Shown: piece by piece, positions 7,103 through 45,821 of the stretch
Position numbering within the stretch: the first letter of the stretch is position 1
How the letters are laid out: every line of letters begins with the position of its first letter
Origin: an uncultured Alphaproteobacteria bacterium
GTDB taxonomy: Bacteria; Pseudomonadota; Alphaproteobacteria; Acetobacterales; Acetobacteraceae
Direction: 5' to 3'
DNA length: 64,000 nt
NCBI GenBank assembly: GCA_963705035.1
Contig: CAVPIQ010000002.1
Coordinates: 386,662 to 450,661 of the forward strand
Made by a program: the position numbers and the translations under genes
The notes under the pieces: generated by a model
The model's input: only the letters and a program-made list of their open reading frames with translations
The model's database searches: none
What the model was told of the DNA's origin: nothing

Positions 7103-9352
7103 TCAGCCGCGGCGGTAGCGCCCGCCGCCGCCCCAATCGCGCTGGCGCTGCCAGCCGCCCTCGCGCGCGCCGCGGTCCTGCTCGAGCTGCTGGTAGGAAG
7201 ACGCCCCACCACCCTGCCGCGCCGGCGGCTGCACCGCGTTCCAGCCGCCGTTGCTCCATTTCGACCAGCCGCTGTGAACTGTGCTGGTAAACGTTGCCGT
7301 CCTTGCCGGCATAGACGTTGCCCTGGGCGCCCTTCACCACGCCCGCGTTGTTGCCGTTCGTGCCGTGCACCGCCGCGCCCTCGGCGCCGGTGGTGCTGGA
7401 AAACCCGCCCACGGTGCCGCGCGCGTTGCCCTCGCTCGCGGTGTGCACGGTCTGGGTCGGGGTCGCTCACCACGCTCGATCCCCAGTGGCCGTAGGCGTT
7501 GGCGTTCTGGTTCGTGCTGCCGGAGACGCCGTAGCGCGGATTGGCGAAACTGGCGTTTGCGGTGCCGCCATTCGGCCCCCAGGCGGCGCTGCCATGGGCG
7601 TAGGTGCCCGTGGCCGGGTTGTAGGCCGACCAGGCGCCGGCGCCGCCATACGGGCCATAGACCTCGCCGCCGCGGGCGTAGGCGCCGGTGGCGGGGTTGT
7701 AGGCCGCGCCGGCCGCGGCCCCGCCGTACGGGCCATAGACGGCCCCGCCCCGCGCCCACGCGCCGGTCGCGGAGTTGTAGTAGACATTGCCGGCGTAGGA
7801 ATACGGGTAGGGGAAATACGCGGGCACCGGCCCCGGCACCACCACCGGCGGGTAGTAATACCCGGTGCCATAGACGACCACACCCGCGCTGACGAACCCC
7901 ATCATGTAGCCGGCGGTGTAGCCATAGGTGACGGCGGCCGGCGTCGCTGCGTAGACCTTCACATAGGTCACGTTATACAGCGGGCTGGACGGCGGAATGG
8001 TGTAGATCACCTCCGGCACCGCGGCCGCCAGCACCCACGGCCCGGTCGGCGAAGGGGCGACGAACCAGACGCCCTGATAGCAGGCGTAATACTTGCCCTC
8101 GACCGCGATCACCGCCTCGTTGGTGTTCACCGCATACGCCATCGGGGTGCCGGGAATCGGCTGGAACTGCGGCGGCCCGGCATAGTGCACGGCGAGCTTC
8201 GCCTCGCTGCGCTTCAACGTCGCCTGTTGCGGGATCTCCGCCGCGATCAGCGCCTCCTGCGCCTGCGGCGTGCCGGGCACCGAGACCAGCACGCGCGCGG
8301 CCGGGTCGCCGGGCGGGATGCGGGCGAAGTCGGCGGGCAGCTCGGGCGTCGCGAAATGCCACGGCCCCTCCAGTCCCGGTGCCGCGAACCAGCGGCCGGA
8401 GACGAGGTAGTAGAACCGGCCCTTGGCGGTATCCAGGAACAGGTCGGAACGCGTGTTGCGCACCGCCTGCAGCGCGGTGCCGGCGATTGCGCCGAAGGCG
8501 GGCGGGCCGTCGGTGACGATGATCTCCGCGGGCTTGGTGCTGACGAAGATCGTCGGTGCCGCGGCCGGCGCGGCGGCGTGCGGCGGCAGGGCCTTGCGCG
8601 CGGCATCGAAGTTGGCGCCCGGCGGCAGCTTCTCGAACGCGGCCGGCAGGTCCGTGGTACGGCGCGTAGGGGCCGGCGACGACCGGCGCGCCGAACCAGC
8701 CGGTGCTGTCGAGCAGATACCAGGTGCCGCGCATCGGATCGAAGAACACGTCCCAGTTCGTGTTCACCGCGTATTCCAGGCCGCTCTGGCCGGCCGGCGC
8801 CAGCACCGGCGCGCCGTCGAAGACGACGAGGCGCGCCGGGCGCTGACTGTAGAAGATCACCGGCGGCGCATTGTCGGTCGCGACCGGCGCCGGCTTCACC
8901 GCCTCCTGCGCGAGGCTCATCAGCACCGTGTCGAGCGGGATGCGCTTGGGCGGCATCGCCGCCAGGGCGGCCCTGATGCGGGTGTCGAAGTGCTCCGCCG
9001 CCTGCGTCGAAAGCGTGGGGAAATGCGAGGCGGTCAGCTTCAGGTCGGTGAGCGTGACGAGGCGCGTTCCGAGATCGGTCGTCGTCGAGCCGGAAATCTC
9101 GATCGTCCCCAGCACCGGCTGCCCGGCGCCCTCCGGCGTGACCGCGAGGGCGACGCGGGCGTTGAGCTTGGTGCGCCAGGGCCAGGAGATGACCTGCGGC
9201 TGATAGATGACGACGGTCGCGTGATCGACGCGCTGCGTGTGCGGCCAGCCGGACGCGGGGGCGGCGGCGGCCTGGGCGCGTGCGCCGCCCGGCAGCGCCG
9301 CCGCCACGAGCAGCGCCAAGCCAAGAGCCTCGCGACGTGTCGGCATCGTCAT
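7103..9352 (-). pseudogene. large secreted Gly/Tyr/Pro-rich repeat protein of unknown function, about three frame changes
   Basis: The signal peptide MTMPTRREALGLALLVAAALPGGARAQA is in ORF 7973..9352. The middle part, FLDTAKGRFYYLVSGRWFAAPGLEGPWHF...GKYYACYQGVWFVAPSPTGPW, and the repeats YNPATGAYARGGEVYGPYGG are in ORF 6349..8463. The tail, GNVYAGKDGNVYQHSS then GWSKWSNGGWNAV...GGGGRYRRG, is in ORFs 7044..7448 and 7103..7312. Confidence 0.6.
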
Positions 9353-9514
9353 CCCTCCCCGCGCCGCGACATCAGCACGCCGGCGCAGCGCGGCGAAGGG
9401 GTTTCACGGCGCGGCCGACGCGGGCGGCTCCGGCGCGACAGGCCGCCGGCGCGCCCGCCCCCGTTGCCGCGAGGCGGCGGCACAGGGTTTCTGAAATGAC
9501 GCCGTTATCTCTCC

Positions 9515-9607
9515 GTCATGCCCGGGCTTGTCCCGGGCATCCACGCCGGCACGCCAGCGATGATGTGGTGCAACGGCGTGGATGGCCGGGACAAGCCCGG
9601 CCATGAC
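9515..9607. repeat. REP-like nested-palindrome element
   Basis: GTCATGCCCGGGCTTGTCCCGGGCATCCACGCC (9515..9547) faces GGCGTGGATGGCCGGGACAAGCCCGGCCATGAC (9575..9607). Each arm contains an internal hairpin (GCCCGGGCTTGTCCCGGGC). The element is intergenic, downstream of doxX. Confidence 0.75.
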
Positions 9608-9632
9608 CGGTGAGGGACAGGCATTCCCCCAT

Positions 9633-10069
9633 TCACGCCCGCGCCGGCCGGAACCGCCACGCCAGCAGCGCGTCCAGCGAAAAGGCGCCGGCGCCGCGGC
9701 AGAGCAGCACCAGCAGCATCGCTGCCCACTGAATGTGGGTCGGCCACGCCTCGCGGATAGACGAACACCTCGATCACCGTCGTCATGCCGAGCAGCACCG
9801 CCGCCACCGGGCGCGTGAGCAGGCCGAGCACCAGCAGCGGCGGCGTGGAAAGCTCGATCGTCGCCGCAGATATACGCGCCGACCACCGGCGGCAGTAGCG
9901 GCAGCCGGTACTCGTCGGTGAACAGGGCGACGGTGGCGCTCCAGTCGGCGAGCTTGGCCATGCCGGAGTTCCAGAAGATCACCGCCACCGCCACACGCAG
10001 CGGCAGCGCGAGCAGCGCATAGGGCACCGCGTCGAGCACGGCCACGATGCCGGCGATCAGGCGTCGCAT
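9633..10069 (-). pseudogene. DoxX-family membrane protein (last gene of the bufferin-type operon), about two frame changes
   Basis: MRRLIAGIVAVLDAVPYALLALPLRVAVAVIFWNSGMAKLADWSATVALFTDEYRLPLLPPVVGAYI is in ORF 9404..10480. LGLLTRPVAAVLLGMTTVIEVFVYP is in ORF 9505..9831. The tail WPTHIQWAAMLLVLLCRGAGAFSLDALLAWRF, ending at TGA 9633, is in a third frame. Confidence 0.65.
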
Positions 10070-10848
10070 GGCGTCCCCTCCCGGCATACCGCGGCGGCAG
10101 CGAGTTGGCCGCGGGCGAATCTGTGCCGCGAGCATCGAGGCGGCGTCCAGGCGTGCCGGCGCCCGGGCCAGCACCTCGCCCAGCGGCGCGCCCGCGAACA
10201 GGGGCCGCAGGAAGCGCCAAGCCGAGGCGGCGCCATGCGCTCGGCGACGATTTCGCCCGCCGCGCGATGCACGAGCAGGTGCACGGGGCCGCTGCCAAGG
10301 TCGATCGCCGCCATCGCCGCCTCGTCGCCGGCCCGCACCGCATCCGTGATCGCATCCGCCGGATAGCGCAGGCGCAGCAGCGTGACCGATGGGTGCGAGG
10401 TGAAGCATAGCCGCGGATGTTGCTCGGCGCGGCACCGACGCGAGCGAGGCGGCATCGAGCGCGGGCACGTCGGCGCGCATTCGCCGCCCGCGCCAGCGCC
10501 CACTCGAACCGCGCGACGTCGGCGAGATACGCGACCGCGCGCGCAGCGTGCATCCGCGCCGAGAAAATTGCCGAACGCGTCGCCCCAGCCGCCGAGCCAG
10601 GCCTCGCGCGGCGGATGCGCATGCCAGAACTTCGCTGCCGCCAGCCGCGAAGAATTCCTCGCCGACGATCGCTTCCGTCGCCGGGAAGCCAATGCGCAGC
10701 GCCTCGACCGCGACCGTGCGCGCGGTGTTGCGATAGACGTCGAGCCGCGCGAGATCGGGCAGCGATCAGCGCCGCGAGCCGCGGGCTCGCGCTCCCGCCG
10801 CGCAGCGCGTCGGCGAAGTCGTGCTTGCAGGTCACGCAGCGCGAGCAT
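10057..10848 (-). pseudogene. DUF2063-family protein (BufC-like MNIO partner), multiple frame changes
   Basis: It starts at MLALRDLQ, overlapping the DUF692 gene's stop. Recognisable fragments lie in different frames: FADALRGGSASPRLAALIA, AAKFWHAHPPREAWLGGWGDAFGNFLG, and LLRLRYPADAITDAVRAGDEAAMAAIDLGSGPVHLLVHRAAGEIV. It sits between the DUF692 and DoxX genes, as in gig/buf operons. The 3' end is approximate. Confidence 0.55.
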
Positions 10849-11695
10849 GCCCCGCCTCCTCGATCAGCACCTGCGCCCGCGCCGCCTCGGCGGCGAGCAC
10901 GCCGAGCGGCGGGATGCGCGTGTCCCACTCCACCAGCACCGGCACCGGCCCGAACCGCGCGAGCGCGGTCGGCGAGCAGCCCCCACACTTCCGCCGAGAC
11001 CGCGCGAGCCGTGATCGTCGATGCGCAGCGTGCGGCCGTCGCCGAGCGGGCGCACCGCATGGCCGGCGACATGGATTTCGCCCACCGCACCGGCCGGCAG
11101 CGCGCGCAGATAGGCATGCGGGTCGAAGCCGTGGTTGTGCGCCTAGACCGCGATGTTGTTCACGTCGCACAGCATGCCGCATCCGGTGCGCGCGGCCACC
11201 GCCGCCATGAACTCCCATTCCGGAATCGTCGCGTGCGCGAACTGCAGGTAGCTCGACGGGTTCTCCACCAGGACCTGCGCGGCCGAGGGCGCTCTGCATC
11301 GTCTCGACATTGCGGCAGACGACGTCCAGCGCCTCCTCGGTCATCGGCAGCGGCAGCAGGTCGGCGAGGTAGGTGCCGCCGGCGACGCTCCAGGCGACGT
11401 GCTCGGAGATCAGGCCGGGCTCGATGCGCGCGGCCAGCGCGGCGAGGCGCGCGAGGTGGCCGGCATCGAGCCCCTCCGCGCTGCCGAGCGAGAGGCCGAC
11501 GCCGTGCAGCGTTACCGGCCAGTCGCGCCGCACGGCCTCGAGCGCGGCGACCGCGGCCCCGCCGCCAAAGTAGTTCTCCGGATGCACCTCCATCCAGCCG
11601 ACCGCCGGGCGCTGCTCGAGCACCGCGTGGTGGTGGGGAAAGCGCAGGCCGATCCCCGCGGCAGCGGGAACCGGGCCGGGCGGGACCGCGGCCAT
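10832..11695 (-). pseudogene. DUF692 / MNIO (multinuclear non-heme iron oxidase, MbnB/BufB-like) enzyme, frame changes plus an in-frame TAG
   Basis: AAGIGLRFPHHHAVLEQRPAVGWMEVHPENYFGGG...LHGVGLSLGSAEGLDAGHLARLAALAARIEPGLISEHVAWS is in ORF 10832..11695. It continues in other frames as [41 protein letters not shown], with a TAG at about 11143..11145 where family members have a sense codon. The tail [28 protein letters not shown] follows. Confidence 0.7.
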
Positions 11696-11705
11696 CGCGC
11701 CGGCC

Positions 11706-11961
11706 TCAGGTCGCCGTCAGCTTGCCGCCGGCGATCTTCCCGCACGCGCCCTTCGGCAGATAGCACGAAGCTCTTGGGGTCGCGGGCCATCGTCGACTGC
11801 CCGGCGCAGGAATGCGCGCCGGCGGCGCAGTCGTTCATCGCCTTGGCGGCGATGCCGAAGCACTTCTCGCTGCCGGCCGGTGCGGCGGCATTGGCGACGA
11901 AGGGGGTGGCCGCGAGCCCGATGGCGGCGACGAGGGTGGCGGTGGCGAGGCTTCGGGTCAT
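11706..11961 (-). pseudogene. DUF2282 bufferin-type RiPP precursor (BufA-like), one frame change before the last Cys
   Basis: MTRSLATATLVAAIGLAATPFVANAAAPAGSEKCFGIAAKAMNDCAAGAHSCAGQSTMARDPKSFV, then a one-base shift is needed to read (Y)LPKGACGKIAGGKLTAT*. This gives a signal peptide plus a four-Cys core of the form EKC..NDC..HSC..GxC, directly upstream of the DUF692 gene. Confidence 0.7.
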
Positions 11962-12013
11962 GAAATGACGCTCCCTATGCAGCCGGCCCGGGAGCGGGCC
12001 GGTGCGAGAGGAA

Positions 12014-12039
12014 TTCGCCCCTCGCCCGCGGAAGGTTAC
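12014..12039 (-). promoter_or_regulatory. candidate SigF-type ECF promoter driving the bufferin operon
   Basis: The minus strand reads GTAACC (12039..12034), then exactly 16 nt, then CGAA (12017..12014), about 50 nt upstream of the bufA ATG. This matches the GTAACC-N16-CGAA motif I recall for Caulobacter sigma-F dependent promoters. That recollection is not verified here. Confidence 0.5.
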
Positions 12040-12100
12040 GCGGCCCCGTAACGCCATCGCCAGTCGCGTGTCCGCACCGCCGAAGGCAAAGGAGAACCGC

Positions 12101-12662
12101 ATGCCGCAGGAGGAAGCCCGGCCCGACACGTGGTCGGCGCTGATGGCATCGGCGCAGGGCGGCGACCGCGCGGCGTACCGGCGTCTGCTGAGCGAAATCG
12201 TTCCCTATTTGCGGGCGGTGGCGCGGCACGCGCTGCGCGATGCGGTGGAGGCGGAGGATGCGGTCCAGGACACGCTGCTGACCCTGCACGCGATGCGCCA
12301 TGCCTACGACGCACGCCGCCCGTTCAAGCCCTGGCTGCTCGGCATCGCGCGCCACCGCATCCCCGACCGGCGCCGCGCCGGCCGGCGGCGGGCGGCGCGC
12401 GAGGTGGTGTTTGACGAGAGTTACGAAACCATTGCAGCCCCGCCGACGAATGAGACGGTGCTGCTGGACGGCGGCGCGGCGCTGGCAGGCGCGCTGAACC
12501 AGTTGCCGCCGGGCCAGCGGACGGCCCTGGAGCTGTTGAAGTTGAAGGAAATGTCGCTGAAGGAAGCGGCGGCGGTGAGCGGGATGACGGTGGCGGCGCT
12601 AAAGGTGGCGACGCATCGCGGCCTGTGCCCGGCTGCGCGCGCTGCTGGGCGACGCGCCATGA
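12101..12662 (+). pseudogene. ECF sigma factor (SigF-like), one frame change near the 3' end
   Basis: The RBS AAGGAG lies about 8 nt before ATG 12101. Region 2 reads DAVQDTLLTLHAMRHAYDARRPFKPWLLGIARHRI and region 4 reads LPPGQRTALELLKLKEMSLKEAAAVSGMTVAALKVATHRG. The expected end ARLRALLGDAP* is in another frame, with ATGA overlapping the next gene. Confidence 0.75.
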
Positions 12663-13354
12663 TGCCGACCACGGACCTGATCGAGCGACTGGTCGCCGAG
12701 GCCGAGCCGGTGCGCCCGCTGCACGCGCCCGCCGCGCGCGCGGCGCTGTGGCTGCTGCTGGCGGCGGTGGTGATCGGTGCGCTGGTGCTGGTCTACGGGC
12801 TGGCCGACAATTTGGCGGCGCGGTTCGCACGGGCGCGCGAGTGGCTGTTCCTCGGCGGTGGCGGTCGCGACCGGCGTGCTCGCGGCGGTGGCCGCGTTCC
12901 AGGCGAGCCTTCCCGACCGCTCGCGCGCCTGGCTGCTGCTGCCGGTTCCGGCCGCGGCGCTCTGGCTGCTCACCGTCAGCGGCGGCTGCCTCGCCGCGCT
13001 GGCTGTGGCCGGCGCCGAGCGGGCCCTACATGGGGCCGGGGCGGCTCTGCTTCGAACTGCTGATCGCCTCCGGCGTGCCGATGACGGTCGCGATGGCGCT
13101 GATGCTGCGCCACGCGCGGCGGCTGCACGCGACCGGGCCGGTGGCGCATGGGGGCGCTGGCGGTCGCCGCCCTCACCGCGGCCGGGATGGCGCTGATAAA
13201 CCCGATGGACGCGACGGCGCTGGTGCTGACCTGCGACCTGGGCGTGGCGTTGCTGGTGCTGGCCGCCGACCGCGCGGCCGGCGGGCGGCTGCTCACGCGC
13301 CGGTGGCGGCGTGCAGCACCTCGGCGGCATGCCGCGTCCGGCCCGCATCCGTGA
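12659..13354 (+). pseudogene. NrsF-like DUF1109 anti-sigma-F membrane protein, about three frame changes
   Basis: MMPTTDLIERLVAEAEPVRPLHAPAARAALWLLLAAVVIGALVLVYGLADNLAARF comes first. It continues in other frames as GSAVATGVLAAVAAFQASLPDRSRAWLLLPVPAAALWLLTVSGGCL, then CFELLIASGVPMTVAMALMLRHARRLH, then GALAVAALTAAGMALINPMDATALVLTCDLGVALLVLAA. The 3' end is uncertain. Confidence 0.6.
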
Positions 13355-13517
13355 GTTCGTAGCGCCCGTCGGGACGTTTGCGGACCAGCCCGCGCTCGGC
13401 GAGGCGGGCGAGGCATGGCCCGTCCTTCAGCCCGTCCGGCCGGCCCACCTCCCCCGCGAGATGCAGCCGCTGCATCGCCGAGCGGCAGCAGGTTTCCAGG
13501 TACGGCTCATGCCACAT
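13293..13517 (-). CDS. small hypothetical protein, winged-helix-like
   Basis: 74-aa intact reading frame: [68 protein letters not shown]. The call rests on sequence character only; I recognise no family. Confidence 0.4.
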
Positions 13518-13580
13518 GCCGGTGGATGTGCCCGCCGCCGCGTGCTTGCCGCAAGCGCCGCGGTGCGGCAGGAAGCCGCC

Positions 13581-14631
13581 ATGCTTGCCGCCGCCGCCAT
13601 GCCGCTGCTCCGCCGCCTCGATGCCGAGCGGGCCCACGCGATCGCGCTCCGGGCGCTGCGCCTGCGCCGCGGCGCGGCGCCGGCTGCGCCGGACGACCCG
13701 CGCCTCGCGGTCCGCGCGCTGGGGCTCGGCTTCGCCAACCCGATCGGGCTTGCCGCCGGGTTCGACAAGAACGCGGTGGCGCTGGCCCGGCCTGATGCGG
13801 CTCGGCTTCGGGTTCCTGGAAGCCGGGACGGTCACGCCCCGGCCGCAGCCGGGCAACCCGCGCCCGCGCATCTTCCGCCTGCGAGCCCGACGGCGCGGTC
13901 ATCAACCGGCTGGGCTTCAACAACGCCGGCATCGCCGCCTTCGTCCGCCACCTCGCCGCCCGCCCGCGCGGTGGTGCCGGTGGGCGCCAATGTCGGGCCG
14001 AACCGCGAGGGCGCGGTGCCGGAGCGCGACTACCCGGCGCTGGTCGCGGCGGTGGCGCCGCACGCCGACTACGTGGTGATCAACGTCTCCTCGCCGAACA
14101 CGCCTGGGCTGCGCGATCTGCAGGCGCGCGGCGCGGCTGGCGCGGCATCCTGGACGCGATCCGCGCCGCGGTGCCGCAGCCGCCGCCGCTGCTGGTCAAG
14201 CTCGCCCCGGATCTCGCCGCCGCCGACCTCGCGCCGATCGTCGACGCTGCGTGTGCGAAGCGGGCGTCGCCGGGCTGGTGGTGGCGAACACGACGCTCGC
14301 CCGCCCCGGCGGGCTGCGCTCGCCGGCACGCGGGCGAGGCCGGCGGGCTCTCCGGCGCGCCGCTGTTCGCGCCTTCGACCGCGATGCTCGCCGCGGTGGC
14401 GCGGCTGGCGGCCGGGCGGCTGGTGCTGATCGGCGTCGGCGGCATCGCGACCGGGCGCGAGGTGCTGGAGAAGATCCGGGCCGGCGCGAGCCTGGTGCAG
14501 CTCTACACCGGCTTCGCGCTGCACGGCCCGGCGCTGATCCCGCGGCTGAAGCGCGAGCTGCTCGCCGCGCTCGACGAAGGCGGTTTTGCAACGCGTCGCG
14601 CGACGCCATCGGCGCCGACCTCAGGGACTGA
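13581..14631 (+). pseudogene. pyrD: dihydroorotate dehydrogenase (quinone), several frame changes
   Basis: [18 protein letters not shown]...[19 protein letters not shown] is followed, in different frames, by [99 protein letters not shown], and GGLSGAPLFAPSTAMLAAVARLAAGRLVLIGVGGIATGREVLEKIRAGASLVQLYTGF. Confidence 0.8.
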
Positions 14632-14632
14632 C

Positions 14633-15502
14633 ATGCAGCATCTGCACAATTTCGCGCCGCTCGCCGCGCGCTACGACGGGTTCGTGCTCGATCTGTGGGG
14701 CGTCATCCATGACGGGGTGTCGCCCTATCCCGGCGCCGTCGATTGCCTGGAGCGGCTGCGCGCCGCCGGCAAGCGGGTGGTGCTGCTCTCCAACGCGCCG
14801 CGCCGCGCCGCCGACGCCGCCGCCGCGATGCGCGCGATGGGGATCGGCGACGCGCTCTACACCGGCATCGTGACCAGCGGCGAGGCGACGCACGCCCTGC
14901 TGCGCGACCGCAGCCGACCCGGCGTTCGCCGCACTCGGCCGGCGGCTGTTCCATCTCGGCCCGGAGCGCGACCGCAACGTGTTCGACGGGCTCGACGTCG
15001 AGAGCGTGGCCGCGCCGGCGGCGGCGACGTTCGTGCTCAACACCGGCCCCGACGACAGCCACCAGCCCGACCGAGATCGGCCCGTGGGAGGCGACGCTGC
15101 GTGCGTGCCGCGCGGCGCGGGCTGCCGATGGTCTGCGCCAATCCGGACCTGGAAGTGATCCGCGGCGGCGAGCGGGTGATCTGCGCCGGCGCGCTGGCGC
15201 TGCGCTACGCGGCGCTCGGCGGCGACGTGCTGCTGGGTCGGCAAGCCGGACCCGGCGGTCTATCGGCCGGTGCTCGACGCTGCTCGGCGATGCCGAAGGC
15301 GCGCGTGCTCGCGGTGGGCGACGCGCTGCGCACCGACATCGCCGGCGCCGCCGCGGCCGGGCTCGACGCGGCCTGGGTGCTCGGCGGCATCCATGGCGCG
15401 GCACTGGTGGGGGCCGCGCTCGCGGGGCCGGATGCGGCAGAGGCGATGGCGCGGCGGGCGGGCCTGGCGCCGCTGGCGACCCTGCCCGCCCTCCGCTGGT
15501 AG
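14633..15502 (+). pseudogene. HAD-IIA family hydrolase (TIGR01459-like), several frame changes
   Basis: MQHLHNFAPLAARYDGFVLDLWGVIHDGVSPYPGAVDCLERLRAAGKRVVLLSNAPRRA comes first. Later, in other frames, come MVCANPDLEVIRGGERVICAGALALRYAALGGDV and VLAVGDALRTDIAGAAAAGLDAAWVLGGIHG. Confidence 0.7.
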
Positions 15503-15518
15503 CGCGCGGCGCGCCCGG

Positions 15519-15767
15519 TCAGTTCGAGCGCGGACCGGTCTGGGTCGCCGACGCCGTCGTGTTGTCGTGGAACACGCTCGTCCACGACCCGCTCACGATC
15601 GGCGAAGTGCTGTTGTACGCCCAGGGTCGGCTGCCGCAGTCCGAGCCCACGTAGTAGCCGAGCGGCCGGCCGGGCGGGCCGTTGTCGTGATCGTTCGGCG
15701 GCGGGCAGAAGGCAAAGGCCGGCGTTGCCGCAATCAGCGACGCCGCCATGAACAGAATTGTTTTCAT
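15519..15767 (-). CDS. small secreted protein of unknown function
   Basis: The RBS AAGGAG precedes ATG 15767. The signal peptide is MKTILFMAASLIAATPAFA. The mature part is about 60 aa with two Cys. The gene sits next to a locally AT-richer upstream region. Confidence 0.55.
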   Translation of the reverse strand: MKTILFMAASLIAATPAFAFCPPPNDHDNGPPGRPLGYYVGSDCGSRPWAYNSTSPIVSGSWTSVFHDNTTASATQTGPRSN

Positions 15768-15947
15768 GAGGGATCTCCTTGTGCCTGACCGGAGAAGTTG
15801 GCCCCGATTAAGGAAGTCGTCAGGCACGCTCATGAACTTCGGCATACAAACGACGAGCACCAGACACGCCAGCGCTAAAAAATCAGATATAACATTGCTG
15901 TCGTATTGCTCACGTCGACGCGAACCCGATCGTGACTGGAGGCCGAC

Positions 15948-16274
15948 TTAGCGGCCGCCGCCGCTTCCGCCGCCACCCCCGCCGGCGCCGCCACCCGCGT
16001 TCCCTCCGCCGCCGCGACCAACGGATGATGCATGCGCCGGGGCCGACCGGAACCCGACCGGGGCGACGGTCCCGCTGGGCGTCGCGGCGGTGGCGGAGGC
16101 CGAGGTGCCCGCCGTCTTCGTCAGCGCCTGCGGGAATGCGTTGTGGTCGAGCGAGCCGCCGTGCGAGAGCAGGCCCGGCGGATAGGTCGGGATCGTCCCG
16201 CCCTCACAGCCGATGACGGCACCCGCCGCCGGCAGCAGCAGCGCCGCCCGCAGTGTCAGCCTTGTCAGTGTCAT
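15948..16274 (-). CDS. lipoprotein with a Gly-rich C-terminal tail
   Basis: The RBS GAGGAGGG precedes ATG 16274. MTLTRLTLRAALLLPAAGAVIGC contains a lipobox (VIGC). The tail is GRGGGGNAGGGAGGGGGGSGGGR. Confidence 0.55.
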   Translation of the reverse strand: MTLTRLTLRAALLLPAAGAVIGCEGGTIPTYPPGLLSHGGSLDHNAFPQALTKTAGTSASATAATPSGTVAPVGFRSAPAHASSVGRGGGGNAGGGAGGGGGGSGGGR

Positions 16275-16340
16275 GGTTGCCCTCCTCGCGCCGCGGCTGG
16301 CGCGCACCCAGTCCGCGCCGCCTGCGATGGACGTCGTGGC

Positions 16341-16390
16341 CCCCGCGGCAATTCCCCCGCGGCAAATCCCCCGCGGCAATTCCCCCGCTT
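16341..16390. repeat. 14-bp tandem repeat (about 3.4 copies) upstream of the lipoprotein gene
   Basis: CCCCGCGGCAATTC / CCCCGCGGCAAATC / CCCCGCGGCAATTC / CCCCGCTTCAC, located 67-116 nt upstream of ATG 16274. Confidence 0.85.
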
Positions 16391-16414
16391 CACCCGCGCG
16401 TCAATCCCCGCGCG

Positions 16415-17065
16415 TCAGGCGCGGCCGGCGGAGGGGGAGAGCAGCAGCGGATCGACCTTCAACTTCGCCAACGCCCGCCGCCATTTCGTGTCGTGCTCGT
16501 CGTCGAACAGCAGCGCCGGGTCGGCCGAGCACCGACAGCCAGGCATTCTGGGCGAACTCCGCCTCCAGTTGGCCCGGACCCCAGCCGGCGTAGCCGAGCG
16601 CCAGCATGCCCTGCGCCGGGCCGCCGCCGGCGGCGATCGCCTTGAGGATGTCGAGCGAGGCGGTCAGCGCCGTCTGCGCATCCACCCGCAGGCTGCCGTC
16701 GCCGGTCCAGTCCGCCGTGTGCAGCACGAAGCCGCGCGCGTGATCGACCGGCCCGCCCTGGCACAGCCGGATCGAGCGCGCGGGCGGCACCGGATCGACG
16801 CCCAACTGCTTCAGCAGGTCGGAAAAACTCGGTGAGGCGAGCGGGCGGTTGACCACGATGCCCATCGCGCCTTCGTCAGTGTGCGCGCAAACATAGATCA
16901 CGGACTGAGCGAAGCGCGGATCGCCCATCGTCGGCATGGCGATCAGCAATTGTCCGGTGAACGCCTGCCTCGCCCGCCGCCTCTCGCGCCAGCGACCGCG
17001 CGCGCCCGGGCGCGCGACGCGCGCGGGCGCTTGGGCGGCGGGCCGGAAGGGGCGGTCGGAGCCAT
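16415..17065 (-). pseudogene. YqgE/AlgH family (UPF0301) protein, one or two frame changes
   Basis: GQLLIAMPTMGDPRFAQSVIYVCAHTDEGAMGIVVNRPL...GFVLHT...GMLALGYAGWGPGQLEAEFAQNAWL is in ORF 16401..16949. The expected tail ADPALLFDDEHDTKWRRALAKLKVDPLLLS, ending at TGA 16415, is in another frame. The start is uncertain (possibly ATG 17065). Confidence 0.7.
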
Positions 17066-17181
17066 GTGCAATACTTTGGACATATTCGTGACGAAAACAA
17101 GTCGCGCTCCGCCCAGCGTGACAGCGCCCCGCACTGGCGCTAGGACTCCGCCCGCACCGTCACAGGGAAGGGCGCGCAGCG

Positions 17182-17663
17182 ATGACGATCAAGGTGGGCG
17201 ACAGCATTCCGTCGGTGAAGTTGATGACACCGACCGCCGACGGGCCCAAGGAGATCTCCACCGACGAGATTTTCAAGGGCAAGAAGGTCGTGCTGTTCGC
17301 GGTGCCCGGCGCATTCACGCCGACCTGCAGCGCCAAGCACCTTCCTGGTTTCTTGAGAGCGCCGCGGCGATCCGCGCCAAGGGCGTGGACACCATTGCCT
17401 GCATGGCGGTGAACGATGCGTTCGTGATGGGCGCGTGGAGCAAGGAGAAGGGTGTCGACGGCGCGATCGTGATGCTCGCCGACGGCTCCGGCACGTTCAC
17501 GAAAGCCCTGGGGCTCGAGCTCGACCTCATCGCGCGCGGCCTCGGCGTGCGCAGCCAGCGCTTCGCGTTGATCGCGCAGGACGGAAAGGTGACGCATCTG
17601 GCGGTGGAGCCGCCCGGCGGTTTCGACGTCAGCCGCGCCGAGGCGGTGCTCGCCGCCCTTTGA
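17182..17663 (+). pseudogene. peroxiredoxin (Prx5-like), one frame change
   Basis: MTIKVGDSIPSVKLMTPTADGPKEISTDEIFKGKKVVLFAVPGAFTPTCSAKHLPGF is in ORF 17182..17412. ESAAAIRAKGVDTIACMAVNDAFVMGAWSKEKGVDGAIVMLADGSGTFTKALG is in ORF 16881..17663. Confidence 0.8.
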
Positions 17664-17706
17664 CCGGATCGCGGCACACGCCGGCGTGGGTTGACGGCGG
17701 GGAGTT

Positions 17707-17723
17707 TTGCGAATAAGTCGCAA
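17707..17723 (+). promoter_or_regulatory. perfect 6-5-6 palindrome, candidate metalloregulator operator upstream of cupredoxin-FTR1
   Basis: TTGCGA-ATAAG-TCGCAA lies 25 nt upstream of the cupredoxin GTG. Its form resembles TGCA-N-TGCA type Fur/Mur boxes. No regulator gene is in the window. Confidence 0.3.
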
Positions 17724-17747
17724 CCGCAAATCTGCGGAGCCCTCGCC

Positions 17748-18073
17748 GTGCCCCGTCCTGCGCTGCTGCTTGCCCTGGCCCTCGCGGCCTTGCCGGTGCT
17801 GGCCGTCGCCGCGCCGCTCGGAACTCGTCATCGAGGGCCACGTCTTCGCGCCGGCCGAGCTGCACGTGAAGGCGGGCGAGCCGATCGAGCTGCGCGTGGT
17901 CAATCGCGACGCCACCGCGGAGGAGTTCGAAGTCTTCCGCGCTCAAGGTGGAGAAGGTCGTGGCGGGCCACAGCGAGGCGGTGGTGCGGATCCGTCCGCT
18001 CAAGCCCGGCCAGTACAAGTTCGTGGGCGAGTATCACGAGGATACCGCACACGGCGTGATCATCGCCGAATAG
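17748..18073 (+). pseudogene. cupredoxin-domain periplasmic protein, about two frame changes
   Basis: The signal-like VPRPALLLALALAALPVLAVAAP is followed by ELVIEGHVFAPAELHVKAGEPIELRVVNRDATAEEFE, then ALKVEKVVAGHSEAVVRIRPLKPGQYKFVGEYHEDTAHGVIIAE*, spread across three frames. Confidence 0.65.
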
Positions 18074-18080
18074 GCCGCCC

Positions 18081-18935
18081 ATGCTCGCCGCGGCACTCAT
18101 CGTCTTTCGCGAGGTGATCGAGGCCGGCCTCGATCGTCGGCATCGTTCTCGCGGCGACGCGCGGCGTGGCGGGGCGCGGGCGGATGGTCGCCGGCGGGAT
18201 TGCCGCGGGCGTGCTGGGCGCGCTGCTGCTGGCCGGCTTCGCCCAGCAGATCGCGGCCCTGTTCGAGGGCAGCGGCGCGGAGTTGTTCAACGCCGCCGTG
18301 CTGCTCGCGGCGGTGGTCATGCTGACCTGGCACACGGTCTGGATGGCACGCCACGGGCGCGCGATGGCGCAGTCGCTGCGCGCGGTCGGCGCGCGCGTCG
18401 CGGCCGGGGAGCGGCCGCCGGCCGCGCTCGCTGTCGTGATCGGCCTCGCGGTGCTGCGCGAGGGCAGCGAGGTGGTGCTGTTCCTCTACGGCGTTCTCGC
18501 GGCAGCGGCGGCACCTCGGCGCTCAACGTCGCATTCGGCGGCGTGCTCGGGCTCGCGGCCGGCGCCGCCGCGGCGGCGCTGATCTATGCCGGGCTGCTGG
18601 CGATTCCGGTCTCGCGCCTGTTCTCCGCCACCAACGCGCTGATCACGCTGCTCGCTGCCGGGATGGCGGCGCAGGCGGTGGCGTTCCTCCAGCAAGGCGG
18701 GCTCGCGCAGGTCTGGCAGACGCCGCTGTGGGACACGTCCGGCGTGCTGGCGGAGAATTCGCTCGTCGGGCGGCTGCTGCATACGCTGATCGGCTACACC
18801 GAGCAGCCGAACGGATTGCAGCTCGCGGTCTGGGTCGGAACGATCGCCGTTATCTGGGCGCTCGCGCGCGCACTCGGCGGCGGCCCCTCGCCCGGAAGAC
18901 GCGTTGTGATGCAGGACACGCGCCAGCGCGCCTGA
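18081..18935 (+). pseudogene. FTR1-family iron permease, about two frame changes
   Basis: MLAAALIVFREVIEAGL carries the REVIE (RExxE-type) motif. It is followed by VAGGIAAGVLGALLLAGFAQQIAALFEGSGAELFNAAVLLAAVVMLTWHTVWM and LAVLREGSEVVLFLYGV in ORF 18166..18582. The C-terminal part is in ORF 18081..18935. Confidence 0.75.
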
Positions 18936-19130
18936 TCGCCGCGTCAACGCGGTTGCCACCTAGGACAATTTCGTCCGGCGCACGCATGACATCAAACGCC
19001 GCGCGTCAACGCGCGGCATAGTGTCATTCGAACGGCGCCTTGATTTGTGTCAAGGTGGGCCGTCGAAGAAGATCGCAATCTCACCTGCCCGCGCGATCGG
19101 AGGATTCCGTCGCCAGCAGCAAAGGAGGCC

Positions 19131-21344
19131 GTGGTGAACAGTGCGTCCATGACCGCACCGACGACGATGTCGCTTTCGACCACGCTCGGACCGCTCGGCG
19201 AGTACTGGGTGGACGCGTGGCAGCGATGGATCCTCACGCTCGACGTGCTGCGCGAACGCGGCGACATCTATTTCGAGCACACGTCGCGCCCGGTGCCGCA
19301 TGTGCTGGGCTTCTCCATCGAGTTGGTGATGGACGGACGCACCCTCGCGCATCCGGTCAACTATGGCCTCGTGCGCGTGCTGCCGCCGGACGGCACCGCG
19401 CCGGCCGCCGAGAAGCGACCCTTCGTCGTGTTCGATCCGCGCGCCGGCCACGGGCCGGGCATCGGCGGGATGAAGCAGGAGAGCGAGATCGGCCTCGCCA
19501 TGGCGGCCGGGCATCCCTGCTATTTCGTGGGCTTCGCCCCTGCGCCGGTCCCCGGGCAGACGGTCGAGGATGTCTGCCGGGCGCAAGGCGCGTTCATGGC
19601 GGAGGTCGCTGCGCGGCATCCGAAGTCGGAAGGCAAGCCGGCGGTGATCGCCAACTGCCAGGCCGGCTGGCAGGTGATGATGACCGCCGCGATCCGGCCC
19701 GACCTGTTCGGCCCGATCGTGCTCGCCGGCGCCCCCCTCTCCTACTGGGCCGGCGTGCGCGGCGGCAGCCCGCTGCGCTATCTCGGCGGGCTACTGGGCG
19801 GCACGTGGCTGACGGCACTCGCCGGCGACACGGGCAGCGGCATCTTCGACGGCGCGAACCTGGTGGCCAATTTCGAGTCGATGAATCCCGCCAACACGTA
19901 CTGGAAGAAGCCGTACAACCTCTACTCGAAGGTGGATACCGAGGCGGCACGGTTCCTCGATTTCGAGACCTGGTGGGGCAGCCCGGTGCTGCTGGAAGCG
20001 CGGGAGATGCAGTGGATCGCCGACAATCTCTTCGTCGGCAACAAGCTCGCCTCCGGCCAGATCCGCACGTCGGAGGGGGCGCGCGTCGATCTGCGCAACA
20101 TCCGCTCGCCGATCGTGGTGTTCTGCTCCTGGGGCGACGACATCACGCCGCCGCAGCAGGCGCTCGGCTGGATCACCGATCTCTACGCGAAGGACGAGGA
20201 GATTGCGGCCAACGGGCAGACCATCGTCTACACGCTGCACCAGAGCATCGGCCACCTCGGCATCTTCGTCTCCGGCAAGGTCGCGAGCAAGGAACACGAC
20301 GAGCTGATCAACTGCATGGACCTGATCGACCTGCTGCCGCCCGGTCTCTATGAGGCGGTGATCACGGAGGTCGATGCGAACACCGCCAACCGCGAACTCG
20401 TCCACGGCCGCTACCTGTTCAGCCTGGAGCCGCGCCGGCTCGACGATATCCGCGCACTCGGCAACAACGCCGCCGAGGACGATTTGCGCTTCGCGACCGC
20501 GGCGCGCGTCGCCGAGATCAATCTCGGCCTCTATCGCAGCATGCTCGCGCCCCTCGTGCGCTCGATGTCGACGCCGCAGAGTGCCGAGGCGATGCGGTCG
20601 CTGCATCCGAACCGGCTGCGCTTCGCCGCGTTTTCCGACAAGAACCCGGTCATGGCGCCGGTGAAGGCGCTGGCCGAAACGGTGCGCGCCCATCGCCAGC
20701 CGGTGCCGGCGGACAATCCGCTGCTGGCGATGGAGCGGCTTGCATCCTCGACGATGACAAGCTGGCTGGAAGCCTGGGGCCGCACCCGCGACATGATGAC
20801 CGAGGCGTTCTTCCTCTCGACCTACGGCTCGCCGTTCCTCCAGTCGCTGGTCGGGCTCGGCGTCGGCGAGGCGCCGACCCCGATCCATGCGGAGCGCGAC
20901 TTGCTGCGCGAGGCGACGGAGGCGCAGCTGCGCAGCGAGCTTGTGCAGCACTTCGAAACCGGCGGCGCCGCGGAGGCCGTCGTGCGGGCACTGATCTACG
21001 TTCGCGGACTGGAAGCCGGCGTGGATGAACGCGGATATGCACTCATGCAGGCGATCCGCGCCGAGCGGCCGGCCGCGGAGCGGATCGACTTCGCGCGCTT
21101 CAAGGAGCTGTTGCGCGAGCAGGCGCTGCTGGTGCGGCTCGATGCGAAGCGGGCGGTCAAGGCGATCCCCGCGCTGCTGCCGAAGGAAACTGCGGTGCGC
21201 CGGACGGCGCTCGATATCATCCGCCGCATGGCGGGCGCGCGCGGCGTGCTGCCCGACGACGCCAAGCGACGCCTCGCGGAAATCGAGGCCATGTTCGCGG
21301 CGAAGGGTGACGCCGCGGCCAAGTCGGAGCTCACCGATGCCTGA
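19131..21344 (+). CDS. DUF3141-family alpha/beta-hydrolase-like protein (PHA-synthase-related, function unknown)
   Basis: Uninterrupted ORF. The RBS AAGGAGG is followed by GTG 19131/19134. The sequence LGPLGEYWVDAWQRWILTLDVLRERGDIYFEHTSRPVPHVLGF...VVFDPRAGHGPGIGGMK...NCQAGW is what I recognise as DUF3141. It overlaps the pta-like gene start. Confidence 0.8.
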   Translation: MVNSASMTAPTTMSLSTTLGPLGEYWVDAWQRWILTLDVLRERGDIYFEHTSRPVPHVLGFSIELVMDGRTLAHPVNYGLVRVLPPDGTAPAAEKRPFVVFDPRAGHGPGIGGMKQESEIGLAMAAGHPCYFVGFAPAPVPGQTVEDVCRAQGAFMAEVAARHPKSEGKPAVIANCQAGWQVMMTAAIRPDLFGPIVLAGAPLSYWAGVRGGSPLRYLGGLLGGTWLTALAGDTGSGIFDGANLVANFESMNPANTYWKKPYNLYSKVDTEAARFLDFETWWGSPVLLEAREMQWIADNLFVGNKLASGQIRTSEGARVDLRNIRSPIVVFCSWGDDITPPQQALGWITDLYAKDEEIAANGQTIVYTLHQSIGHLGIFVSGKVASKEHDELINCMDLIDLLPPGLYEAVITEVDANTANRELVHGRYLFSLEPRRLDDIRALGNNAAEDDLRFATAARVAEINLGLYRSMLAPLVRSMSTPQSAEAMRSLHPNRLRFAAFSDKNPVMAPVKALAETVRAHRQPVPADNPLLAMERLASSTMTSWLEAWGRTRDMMTEAFFLSTYGSPFLQSLVGLGVGEAPTPIHAERDLLREATEAQLRSELVQHFETGGAAEAVVRALIYVRGLEAGVDERGYALMQAIRAERPAAERIDFARFKELLREQALLVRLDAKRAVKAIPALLPKETAVRRTALDIIRRMAGARGVLPDDAKRRLAEIEAMFAAKGDAAAKSELTDA

Positions 21345-22305
21345 CGAGCACAAGCCGAAGCCCGCGGCGCGGCACGACAAATACGAGCGCCTGGTCGCCG
21401 CCGCGCAGCAGAACCCGCCGGTCCCGACCGCGGTCGCGCATCCGTGTGACGAAGTCTCGCTCGAAGGCGCGGTCGAGGCGGCGCGGATGGGACTGATCGA
21501 GCCCATCGCTGGTCGGGCCGGAAGCGCGCATCCGTGCCGTCGCGGCGAAGGCCAAGATCGACCTCGCCCCGTTCGAGATCGTCGATGCCGCGCACAGCCA
21601 CGATGCCGCGGCGAAGGCGGTGGCGCTGGTCACGGCCGGCCGTGCCGAGGCGCTGATGAAGGGCAGCCTGCACACCGACGAGCTGATGGGCGCCGTCGTC
21701 GCGCGCGAGGGCGGGCATCCGCACCGCGCGGCGCATCAGCCACTGCTTCGTCATGGACGTGCCGGGCCACCCCGATCCGCTCATCATCACCGACGCGGCG
21801 GTGAACATCGCGCCCACGCTCGAGGACAAGGTCGACATCGTGCAGAACGCGATCGACCTCGCGCAGGCGATGCGTTTTGCCGAGGTGCGGGTCGCGATCC
21901 TGAGTGCCATGGAGACGGTGAACCCGAAAGTCGCCCTCCACGGTCGAGGCGGCGGCGCTGTGCAAGATGGCCGATCGCGGGCAGATCACCGGCGCGCTGC
22001 TCGACGGACCGCTGGCGCTCGACAATGCCATCAGCGCCGAGGCCGCTGCGATCAAGCACATCGTCTCGCCCGTCGCTGGGCGCGCGAACGTGCTGGTGGT
22101 GCCGGACCTGGAGGCGGGCAACATGCTCGCGAAGAGCCTGTCGTTCCTGGCAGGCGCAGACGCCGCCGGCATCGTGCTCGGCGCGCGCGTGCCGATCATC
22201 CTGACCAGCCGCGCGGACTCGCTGCTCACCCGCCTCGCCTCCTGCGCCGTCGCCTCGCTGGTCGCGGCGGCGCGGCGCAGCAGCCCCGCCGCCGCCGTTC
22301 GCTGA
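21337..22305 (+). pseudogene. phosphate acetyl/butyryl-transferase (PTA_PTB family), about three frame changes
   Basis: The fragments are MPDEHKPKPAARHDKYERLVAAAQQNPPVPTAVAHPCDEVSLEGAVEAARMGLIEPI, then VTAGRAEALMKGSLHTDELMGAVVAREGG, then FVMDVPGHPDPLIITDAAVNIAPTLEDKVDIVQNAIDLA, then GALLDGPLALDNAISAEAAAIKHIVSPVAGRANVLVVPDLEAGNMLAKSL. They lie in four successive frames. Confidence 0.8.
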
Positions 22306-29417: not shown

Positions 29418-31799
29418 GTGGCCGACCGCTATCTCTGGGTCGGCGGCAGCACGCTCGCGCGCCGGCCGACTGGATCGACCTCACCACCGGCCAGACCCCC
29501 GCGGGCCCGCCGAAATTCGTCAATACCGCGACCATCGATCCGGTCGGCGGCTTCGGCGGGATCACGGCCACCGACACCCTCGTGGTCGGCGTGCTCACGC
29601 TGGGCGCGGACTGTTCCTCAACGGCTGGATCCTCACCAGCGCGATCCAGCTTGCCGGCGGCACGATCGACCTGCCCGCCACCGGCACGCTCAGCGTCGGC
29701 ACCGTGCCCTGGCTGCCGGGCACGGCCTATATCGGCAGCAACGGGCAGATCGTCGGCAATGGCCGCATCGACGCGCCGCTGAGCGTCGCCGGCACGCTCG
29801 ACCGCGAGCGGCGGTGCGCTCGGCGTGTTCGGGCCGATCAGCGGCACCGGGACGCTGGCGATCGGCGCCGGCGCGGTGCTGTTCGCGGCTGGCGCCGTCG
29901 CCAGCGGCCTCACCGCCGCCTTCCAGGGGGCCGCCGGCACGCTCGAGCTGTTCACCGCCGCGACCCCGTTCGGCGCCACGATCCGCGGCTTTGCCGCGGG
30001 CGACGTGATCGACATCACCGCGAGCAGTTTTTCCACCGCGAACTACAGCGCCGGCACACTGACGCTGGGCGGCAGATGGCGGCACGCTCGACCTCGCCTT
30101 CGCCGGCACCTATTCGGCCGGCGGCTTCATTCTGGTCCGCGACGCCTTCGGGGGCACGGCGGTCGTGCTCGCCGGCACGACGAGCCTGCCGACTCTCAGC
30201 AACGCTCTGGCGCTCGGCGGGTCGTCCCGACGCTCTACCAGGGCAGCGGCACCGCCAGCACCGTCACCGCCAGCGGCACCGTCGCACTCGCCGGCAGCCT
30301 CTCGGCCGGGCGGGTCACGCAGTCGGGCCAGCTCAGCGTCGCCGCCGGCGGCACGCTCTCGGCCGGCACGATCAGCCTCGCGGGTGAGCTGTCGGCCCTC
30401 GGCGGCGGGGTCGTCGCGGCCAGTGCGGTGAGCCTCGCCGGCGGCACGCTGGCGCCGGACGGGCTCTCGGGGGTCGCGATCGGCACCGGCACCGCCGGCA
30501 GCGGCGGGCTCATCGCGCTCGGCGCGCGGCGGCACGCTGAGCGGCGCGGGACGGATCGCCGCCACCCTCGCCGGCGCGGGCGGCACGGTGCGGGCCGCCG
30601 GCGGGCTGCTGGCGCTGTTCGGGGCGGCGAACGGGTGGGGCACGCTTGCCATCACCGCGGGGGCGACGCTGTTCCTCGGCGGCGCCGTCGCCGCCGGCTA
30701 CACCGCCGATTTCCTCGGCACCGGCGCGACGCTCGACCTGTTCGCGCCGAGCAGCGGGTTCGCCGGCACGCTCGAGAATTTCACCTGGGGCGACGCGCTC
30801 GATATCGGCTTCGCGAGCGTCGATGCCGCCACCTGGGCCGCAGGCACGCTCACGCTGAAGGCGGCGGGTGCCGCGGTGGAGACGATCGCGATCGCCGGCC
30901 GCTATGCCGGGCAGACCTTCGGCGTGCGGCCCGACGGCGCGGGCGGGGCGCTGGTCATGCTCGCCTGCTTCGCGGCCGGCACCCGCATCGCGACCCCCGC
31001 CGGGGCGCGGGCGGTGGAGACACTGCGCCCGGGCGATGCCGTGCTGACCCCGCGCGGGCCGCGCCGGTTGCGCTGGGCGGGACGGCGGCGGGGCGATGCG
31101 CGGGACGCGTCGGAACTGCGCCCCGTCCGCATCGCCGCGGATGCCCTCGGGCCGGGGCAGCCGAGCCGCGACCTCCTGCTCTCCGCCTCGCACGCGGTGT
31201 TACTGGCGGGGCGGCTGGTGCCCGCGATCGCACTGCTGCACGGCGCCGCGGTGCGGCGCGAAGCCGCCGGGTGGCGTGGACTACTGCCATCTCGCGCTCG
31301 ACACCCACGACATCGTTTTCGCCGAGGACGTCGCGGTGGAGACGTTCATGCCCGGCCCGGCGGCGCCGGGCTTCGACGCCGAGTGGGGAACGCGCCCCCG
31401 CCCCGGCCCGCTCCACGCGCCCGCGGCTGGAAGGCGGGGCGCGAACTGGAGGCGCTGCGCGCCACCCTGTTCGGCCCCGGTGCCGGCGTGCGACCCAGCC
31501 GGGCGCGCTGCTCGGCCATGTAGAACGCATCGTGCGCGCGGGCGACGCGATCCGGCTGGAGGGCTGGGCGCATGACCCGACGACGCCCGCCGTGCCCGTG
31601 CTGCTTGACGGCGCTGCGCGCGGATGTGCCGTGCGGACGCATCGTCGCCAATCGCTGGCGCCCCGACCTCGACCGCGCGGGGCTCGGCGACGGGCGCTGC
31701 GCGTTCGAGGCGACGCTCGCCGGGACGGATGCCCGTCTCGTCCTGCGCCGCTGCACGGATGGGGCGGTGCTGCCGGTGGCGCCGGACGCGGGGCAGTAG
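29418..31799 (+). pseudogene. Hint (bacterial intein-like) domain exoprotein, paralogue 1, at least eight frame changes
   Basis: Fragments in shifting frames include RYLWVGGS, DWIDLTTGQTPAGPPKFVNTATIDP, GTLAIGAGAVLFAAGAVASGLTAAFQGAAGTLELFTAATPFGATIRGFAAGDVIDIT and WGTLAITAGATLFLGG...GTLENFTWGDALDIGFASV. The Hint core is CFAAGTRIATPAGARAVETLRPGDAVLTPRG...HAVLLAG, then VDYCHLALDTHDIVFAEDVAVETFMPG. The tail is GHVERIVRAGDAIRLEGWAHDP...ANRWRPDLDRAGLGDGRCAFE, ending at TAG 31799. Confidence 0.65.
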
Positions 31800-32297
31800 C
31801 CGTTTGCGTCGTGGTCGCGAACGGTCGCGCGACGCGGAAAGGGACGCATTCGGGCCATGTATGAAATGTTACAAAACGCCCGCTTGCGGGGCGCTTCTCG
31901 GAACGCCTAAGGTTCATTCCACAAGCGACTGAAAATGACCCATGGCTGGGGGGCCGTGGCGAGTGGTGCGGTGTGTCCCGGATCGCGCCATCCGGCGCAG
32001 TCGGTCGCTTCTCCGACCCGCGACATGCGCGCGACCGCCCGCCGCGCCGTTCCCTGCCCGGCTTAGCAGCGCGAACGGCAACGGAAGGCGGCGCCAACCA
32101 TGGGCACCACGGTCAGCAGCGGTCGGGTCGTGCCGATCGGCGGACCAGAATCAATGTCAGCGTAACGAACGGCGGCAGCGCGCTCGTAATTTCCGGCGGC
32201 TAGATCGTTGTCGGCGTCGTCTTAACGGCGGCGTCGTCAGCGTCAACTCCGGCGGCATCGTCGAGGCGCTGCAGTCTGGGACAGGTGGTCAGACGGC

Positions 32298-43874: not shown

Positions 43875-43926
43875 TCGGCTAGGGCCGGCTGAGCGACTAG
43901 GGCCGACTGATCGGCTAGGGCCGGCC
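43873..43926. repeat. 18-bp tandem repeat x3 overlapping the mop stop codon
   Basis: GATCGGCTAGGGCCGGCT / GAGCGACTAGGGCCGACT / GATCGGCTAGGGCCGGCC. On the minus strand each unit carries GGCCCTAG, matching the ...GRP* end of mop. The repeat lies between the convergent thiolase and mop genes. Confidence 0.8.
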
Positions 43927-44121
43927 GACCATCACGTCGCTCGCCTTGATCACGGCCAGGGCGTCCTGACCGGCGGCGAGGCCGAGTTCGTCCACCGCCT
44001 CGTTGGTGATGGACGCGGTGACGATCGCGCCGCCGACATCGATGCGGACATGCGCCGTCGTTTGCCCCTTCTTCACCTCGACCACCTTGCCGTGCAGCTG
44101 GTTGCGTGCACTGAGCTTCAT
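43915..44121 (-). CDS. mop: molybdopterin/molybdate-binding Mop (TOBE-domain) protein
   Basis: Intact 68 aa: MKLSARNQLHGKVVEVKKGQTTAHVRIDVGGAIVTASITNEAVDELGLAAGQDALAVIKASDVMV. Confidence 0.88.
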   Translation of the reverse strand: MKLSARNQLHGKVVEVKKGQTTAHVRIDVGGAIVTASITNEAVDELGLAAGQDALAVIKASDVMVGRP

Positions 44122-44153
44122 TCTGGCGTGCCCTTTCCCGTGCGGCAGGTTGC

Positions 44154-44177
44154 CGCTATACCCACCGAGATATATCG
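44154..44177. promoter_or_regulatory. candidate ModE/Mop-type Mo-box in the divergent mop / PBP-modABC promoter
   Basis: CGCTATAC-CCACCGAG-ATATATCG has an 8-8-8 layout and imperfect dyad symmetry. It is an isolated AT-rich patch in GC-rich DNA. It resembles the E. coli modA operator layout CGTTATAT-N8-ACATAACG as I recall it. Confidence 0.4.
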
Positions 44178-44198
44178 TATCGCCGGACGGAGGAACAG

Positions 44199-45820: not shown

Positions 45821-45821
45821 C

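Follow-up and report, generated by a model that had tools for sequence, protein, structure and literature searches.

The 64,000-nt stretch of DNA analyzed here (the window) comes from an uncultured, high-GC (~72%) alphaproteobacterium and carries, at window positions 9633-13354, a six-gene locus in which every gene is interrupted by changes of reading frame. Is this the wreck of a metal-stress system or a working gene cluster seen through a faulty consensus? We conclude that the locus is very probably a standard Buf1-type bufferin cluster under SigF/NrsF control, and that its 18 frameshifts are one-base insertion errors of the consensus sequence, part of a process that runs through the whole window. 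The case for an artefact is comparative and statistical; an artefact explains the data far better than any alternative, since the selection acting on the genes, the spectrum of the insertions, and a precedent in another pair of assemblies all agree. Since the error process affects most of the window, the organism itself most likely possesses an intact and functional bufferin system, as far as sequence can tell.

On the minus strand the locus consists of four tightly packed genes: bufA (11961..11706), which encodes the DUF2282 precursor (84 aa after correction); bufB (11695..10832), for an MNIO (DUF692) bufferin maturase; bufC (10848..10057), for the DUF2063 partner of the MNIO enzyme; and bufD (10070..9633), for a DoxX-family membrane protein, the last gene of the operon. 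A gap of 10 nt separates bufA from bufB, while bufB and bufC overlap by 17 nt and bufC and bufD by 14 nt. Divergent from bufA, on the plus strand, lie sigF (12102..12662), encoding an extracytoplasmic function (ECF) sigma factor, and then nrsF (12659..13354), encoding a membrane anti-sigma factor (DUF1109/NrsF); the two are coupled through an ATGA overlap at 12659-12662. Open reading frame (ORF) and Pfam checks reproduced in full what a preliminary description of this locus had given for the gene set, its coordinates, order, and junctions, and the divergent ATGA-coupled pair.

To which families do the six proteins belong? Even uncorrected ORF fragments matched DUF2282, PF05114 (MNIO), and Sigma70_r2/r4 in Pfam, with weak matches to DUF2063 and DoxX (the raw bufC fragments reach just 16.7 bits for DUF2063); the uncorrected nrsF fragments had no Pfam match. 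We restored the frames by removing the insertions specific to the window, guided by an alignment with an intact relative, L001. After this correction all six proteins scored above the Pfam gathering thresholds: BufA with DUF2282 at 77.2 bits (gathering score 22.4), BufB with MNIO (PF05114) at 335 bits, BufC with DUF2063 at 74 bits, BufD with DoxX at 60.3 bits, SigF with Sigma70_r2 at 48 bits and Sigma70_r4_2 at 43.5 bits (Sigma70_ECF also matched), and NrsF with PF06532 at 41.3 bits (cutoff 26.8). BufB further reached 359.3 bits on the NCBIfam equivalog model MNIO_BufB ("MNIO family bufferin maturase"; cutoff 310) and stayed under the NCBIfam cutoffs of the HvfB, ApyH, MbnB, and ChrH models; the solved structure nearest to its product is 3BWW, a DUF692 protein. 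These hidden Markov model searches bear out the Buf1/gig-type bufferin identity proposed earlier. Identity to the intact orthologs in L001 is 98% for BufA, 97% for BufD, and 94% for both SigF and BufB.

The precursor shows the cysteine pattern expected of it. Four residues—C34, C45, C52, and C73—are invariant among 12 aligned precursors, in the arrangement EKC...NDC...HxCAG...C, and in the same alignment the core peptide is shorter than that of most relatives. The preliminary description had linked this pattern with a Sec signal. The cysteines stand, and the signal peptide is a likeness judged by eye: the N-terminus reads MTRS, a hydrophobic stretch of ~19 residues, A-N-A, and AA, and it aligns with the N-termini of the relatives.

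How far do the lesions extend? L001 is an alphaproteobacterial metagenome-assembled genome (MAG; JAFKFJ010000249.1), found in a scan of species-representative genomes through an MNIO fragment with 95% protein identity. It is collinear with window positions 7393-21715 at ~90% nucleotide identity, and its versions of the six genes, of pyrD, and of the other neighbors are unbroken ORFs; a Viterbi pass with a codon model placed frame changes in L001 at gene boundaries only. Aligned with it, the window shows 72 gaps, with 52 one-base insertions in the window versus 8 one-base deletions. Eighteen frameshifting insertions fall within the locus and strike every gene, as previously described: one in bufA (near 11764), three in bufB (10973, 11004, and 11279), eight in bufC (10121, 10234, 10428, 10475, 10558, 10646, 10761, and 10823), two in bufD (near 9754 and 9867), one in sigF (near 12626), and three in nrsF (12861, 12997, and 13146). 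The series then continues far past the edges of the locus, the insertions relative to L001 spanning 9754 to 19085: pyrD has 11, the adjacent HAD-like hydrolase gene six, yqgE two, and a peroxiredoxin gene one, and the cupredoxin/FTR1 genes are affected as well, to ~19.1 kb. Intergenic DNA is hit too (12008 and 12074). Programmed frameshifting or slippage was considered and rejected on account of the up to 11 shifts per gene, their positions away from slippery sites, and these intergenic occurrences.

The same picture holds for the window at large. The codon-model Viterbi path over all 64 kb contains 111 same-strand frame switches, of which ~22 are ordinary gene junctions and ~89 resemble frameshifts; 67 of the latter are in the +1 phase that one-base insertions would produce, and the frameshift-like switches reach 24 of the 32 two-kb bins. 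Stitching the Viterbi segments together yields coherent proteins, and in eight unrelated genes elsewhere in the window a single Pfam domain spans the frame junctions: Formyl_trans_N in a purU-like gene, Peptidase_S24, PHB_depo_C, a TibC-like heptosyltransferase, FGGY_N in a xylulokinase-like gene, Glycos_transf_1, an ABC transporter, and DUF1194, whose full-length match crosses four junctions.

These distributions bear directly on the reading under which decay is genuine and confined to the bufferin/SigF locus, now a cluster of pseudogenes whose metal-stress system has been inactivated. Frame changes in six of six genes and a nonsense codon in bufB would fit such decay, and the locus is indeed the densest patch of lesions, with ~4.8 per kb against ~1.4 per kb in the whole window. 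The lesions nevertheless run without a break into pyrD, the HAD-like gene, yqgE, and the peroxiredoxin gene and recur in unrelated genes throughout the window; the locus has suffered no large deletions; and its promoter motif and its start and stop codons are intact. Together with the selection and mutation data below, this makes a local pseudogene cluster highly improbable.

Selection on the corrected genes argues the same way. We compared them with L001 by the ratio of nonsynonymous to synonymous substitution rates (dN/dS), leaving out the cupredoxin/FTR1 region (17.8-18.9 kb). Values lie between 0.06 and 0.22—0.12 for pyrD and 0.22 for both bufB and bufC—and no corrected gene has an internal stop apart from a TAG in bufB. 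The pooled value for the locus is 0.165 (confidence interval, 0.12-0.21), far below 1 and near the 0.128 (0.10-0.16) of two nearly clean neighbors. A pseudogene old enough to have gathered 8-11 indels per kb is expected to be near-neutral in its substitutions and to contain several stops, whereas the 3.6 kb of corrected locus sequence contains one. The earlier suggestion that the metal-stress system is dead, hedged as it was on the lesions being real, is thus not borne out: the lesions are window-wide, dN/dS at the locus is low, and the insertion signature is shared with another assembly, L008.

What kind of process inserts these bases? G or C makes up 44 of the 52 inserted bases. Insertions next to homopolymers are fewer than expected (9/52 versus 42%; P = 2e-4), which amounts to avoidance, and identical bases flank 27 of the 52, where 24% would be expected (P = 1e-5), so that GG -> GCG and CC -> CGC are favored. 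The commonest contexts are GcG (12) and CgC (10), or 22 of 52 together. Bacterial indels show a deletion bias and are driven by slippage in homopolymers. A spectrum dominated by insertions that avoid homopolymers is the opposite of that bias and hence unlike replication slippage, which counts further against a decaying pseudogene cluster, in which one would not expect nearly all indels to be +1 insertions away from homopolymers. The GG -> GCG and CC -> CGC insertions look instead like systematic consensus error in high-GC DNA.

A precedent is found in a pair of related loci. L008, a MAG record with an MFD identifier, and L009, a k141 assembly, are 93-96% identical, and between them we counted 23 one-base insertions in L008 versus 1 in the reverse direction; most of the L008 insertions are CgC or GcG, as in the window. 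Same-strand frame switches per kb amount to 1.7 in the window, 1.3 in L008, and 0.63 in L009, with 0-0.24 in other loci of short-read style. We take MFD records such as L008 to be long-read (nanopore) MAGs and k141 records such as L009 to be short-read assemblies. In another MFD record, L004, bufA is also frameshifted (~9650-10000), its C-terminus reading ...PRDPKSFVSAARRRLRQDSG in place of ...SFVLLPAGDC...; bufferin genes that look broken can thus be met in other public assemblies too.

Might the frameshifts be real and simply genome-wide, through decay of the whole genome or an unusual insertion-mutagenic process? Lesions that are both window-wide and patchy would be compatible with this. 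Against it stands pyrD, which combines 11 frameshifts with a dN/dS of 0.12 and no stop after correction; were the lesions real, indels would have had to arise at least as fast as substitutions within a very short time. Where lesions are dense is also a matter of position, not of how dispensable a gene is: pyrD, the purU-like gene, and the modABC region are all struck, and two giant repeat proteins encoded side by side differ, one being riddled with lesions and the other free of them. The signature shared by L008 relative to L009 is a further difficulty, and we regard genome-wide real lesions as very unlikely. A related conjecture, to which we likewise give scant credence, is that the insertions record a very recent, genome-wide burst of +1 events with the GG -> GCG / CC -> CGC signature; if true, this would be an undescribed mutational process disabling the bufferin system, pyrD, and many other genes.

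The TAG in bufB calls for a separate treatment. It lies in frame at 11145..11143, as first described, and corresponds to a Ser codon in L001. All frameshifts could be artefactual and this codon a real nonsense allele, so that bufB alone, and hence bufferin maturation, would be inactive: the change is a substitution rather than an insertion-type error, and the ~11.8 kb of coding sequence that was corrected contains no other internal stop. Base-substitution errors, for their part, are also likely in an assembly that has more than one indel error per kb; purifying selection acts on the remainder of bufB, which is 94% identical to its intact ortholog; and the overlapping downstream bufC is preserved. 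We consider a real nonsense allele unlikely, if clearly less so than the wholesale decay discussed above.

Several observations weigh against an ordinary cluster overlaid with sequencing error. This same TAG falls outside the insertion error mode and may be either one more wrongly called base or a genuine allele. The nearest relative, L001, is a different species: a search for a same-species reference gave L001, at ~90% identity, as the best genome match, and the one contig returned by a scan of metagenome contigs, L032, is identical to L001. Exact-protein searches with three start variants of the intact gene at 19.1-21.3 kb and with the thiolase at 42.7-43.9 kb had no matches. The errors come in patches that leave clean blocks of 2-4 kb; clean sequence comprises valS, the gene at 19.1-21.3 kb, and the stretches at 26.8-28.5, 32.3-36.4, 41-43.9, and 49-50.7 kb, and lesion density did not follow GC content, taken as a proxy for polishing or coverage (Spearman 0.24, P = 0.19). 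Finally, the function we attribute to the cluster is read from homology alone.

How is the cluster likely to be controlled? A sigmaF-type promoter, GTAACC-N16-CGAA, lies on the minus strand at 12039..12014, its 3' end 53 nt upstream of the bufA ATG. The match is exact and is the one occurrence in 64 kb, where 0.01 would be expected by chance. Kohler et al. (2012) identified this sequence as the sigmaF-binding sequence of Caulobacter, from 5' rapid amplification of cDNA ends upstream of CC3254 and CC2907 (PMC3511200); the motif that the preliminary description gave is identical to the published one. Among the 20 closest genome loci, 17 carry GTAACC(TT)-N15/16-CGAA at the equivalent place ahead of bufA, and 14 of the 20 share the divergent nrsF-sigF | bufABCD arrangement. 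Upstream of sigF itself we found no sigmaF motif within two substitutions; the Caulobacter sigF operon is reported to lack strong autoregulation (PMC3511200). Genes for a sigma factor and NrsF are reported to be a typical trait of Buf1 clusters (PMC12452194), and so is their divergent arrangement (PMC12452194, PMC11626156). In NrsF, C109 and C129 (window numbering) are kept in the full-length orthologs of the clade; the functionally tested, periplasm-facing conserved cysteines of Caulobacter NrsF are C131 and C181 (PMC3511200), to which the window pair may correspond.

The closest known counterpart is buf1 of Caulobacter vibrioides (CCNA_03363-03366 = CC3254-CC3257), which matches the window in its four genes and their order (DUF2282, MNIO, DUF2063, DoxX), in an adjacent sigF-nrsF operon (CC3253-CC3252), in the GTAACC-N16-CGAA sigmaF promoter, and in a precursor whose N-terminus resembles a signal peptide and whose four cysteines are conserved (PMC3511200, PMC11626156). 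By homology to it, NrsF would hold SigF at the membrane until metal stress frees the sigma factor, which would then transcribe bufABCD from the GTAACC-N16-CGAA promoter. BufB (a multinuclear iron oxidase) and BufC would convert Cys residues of BufA into 5-thiooxazoles, as extrapolated from PMC11626156, and BufA, exported through the Sec pathway, would chelate excess periplasmic copper; BufD (DoxX), of a kind often found in the core of such clusters, is presumably an accessory protein, dispensable for the modification. The window differs from Caulobacter buf1 in its uncultured, high-GC host, in a sequence that is frameshifted as given, in a core peptide shorter than that of most relatives, and in having no sigmaF motif on the sigF side.

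More distant systems share parts of this plan. The gig (gold-induced genes) operon of Cupriavidus metallidurans and a homologous operon of Legionella pneumophila are of the same four-gene MNIO type, and their expression is induced under metal stress (PMC11626156). The HvfABC(X)/oxazolin clusters of Haemophilus influenzae and relatives likewise combine an MNIO enzyme, a DUF2063-type partner, a DoxX-like protein, and a secreted, Cys-rich, copper-binding protein, and the corrected window proteins have sub-threshold NCBIfam matches to HvfB, HvfC, and HvfX. The window precursor, however, is of the DUF2282 (Buf1) type and not of the EGKCG-repeat type, and BufB scores 212 bits against an HvfB cutoff of 360. 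In the methanobactin system MbnABC, too, an MNIO enzyme (MbnB) makes a copper-binding heterocycle from Cys of a ribosomal peptide. The relationship is distant (BufB reaches 46 bits on the MbnB model, cutoff 325), and MbnABC differs in its leader-peptide precursor in place of a Sec signal, its MbnC partner, and its oxazolone-thioamide chemistry.

The anatomy of the locus is thus already known: it does not depart from the Buf1 description except for a somewhat shorter core peptide, and it adds one more case to a family with thousands of catalogued members. Its interest lies mainly in a caution. Residual one-base insertion errors in an assembly can make a textbook Buf1 cluster seem "completely pseudogenised", and it would be a mistake to conclude from such sequence that metal-stress systems or other genes no longer work. 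The GG -> GCG / CC -> CGC signature, combined with dN/dS against a close relative, allows such artefacts to be recognized quickly.

The two ends of the locus have features of their own. About 25 nt downstream of the bufD stop, an inverted repeat with 34-nt arms—a GC-rich, REP/MITE-like (repetitive extragenic palindrome/miniature inverted-repeat transposable element) palindrome at 9515..9607—pairs 9515-9548 with 9574-9607 (94% complementary) around a 25-nt loop and may form a hairpin at the end of the operon. In L001 the palindrome is absent, and ~0.9 kb of different sequence with two small ORFs (L001 12193-12860) takes its place. At the opposite end, a small minus-strand ORF (13296-13637) with a winged-helix-like C-terminus is convergent to nrsF, and its end covers the last 60 nt of that gene; given this overlap, the annotated translation of the odd, Arg-rich end of the NrsF ORF may be wrong.

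Elsewhere in the window, positions 29456-36392 encode two very large, repeat-rich proteins with Hint-like modules at the end (...AGTRIATPAG...), followed at 36527-37715 by the TibC-like heptosyltransferase (Pfam TibC_1st and Glyco_transf_9). Heavy frameshifting affects the first of the giant genes and the transferase gene, and the second giant gene is the clean one; the giant proteins and the transferase may form a glycosylated adhesin system. A molybdate uptake region at 43924-47594 (a mop-like gene, then modA-, modB-, and modC-like genes) changes frame many times from 45.0 to 46.6 kb. Farther along, two tandem paralogous GT4/GT1 glycosyltransferase genes on the minus strand (59572-60622 and 60737-61793), near-identical at their N-termini (MRIAQIAPLFE...), each carry three to four frameshifts.

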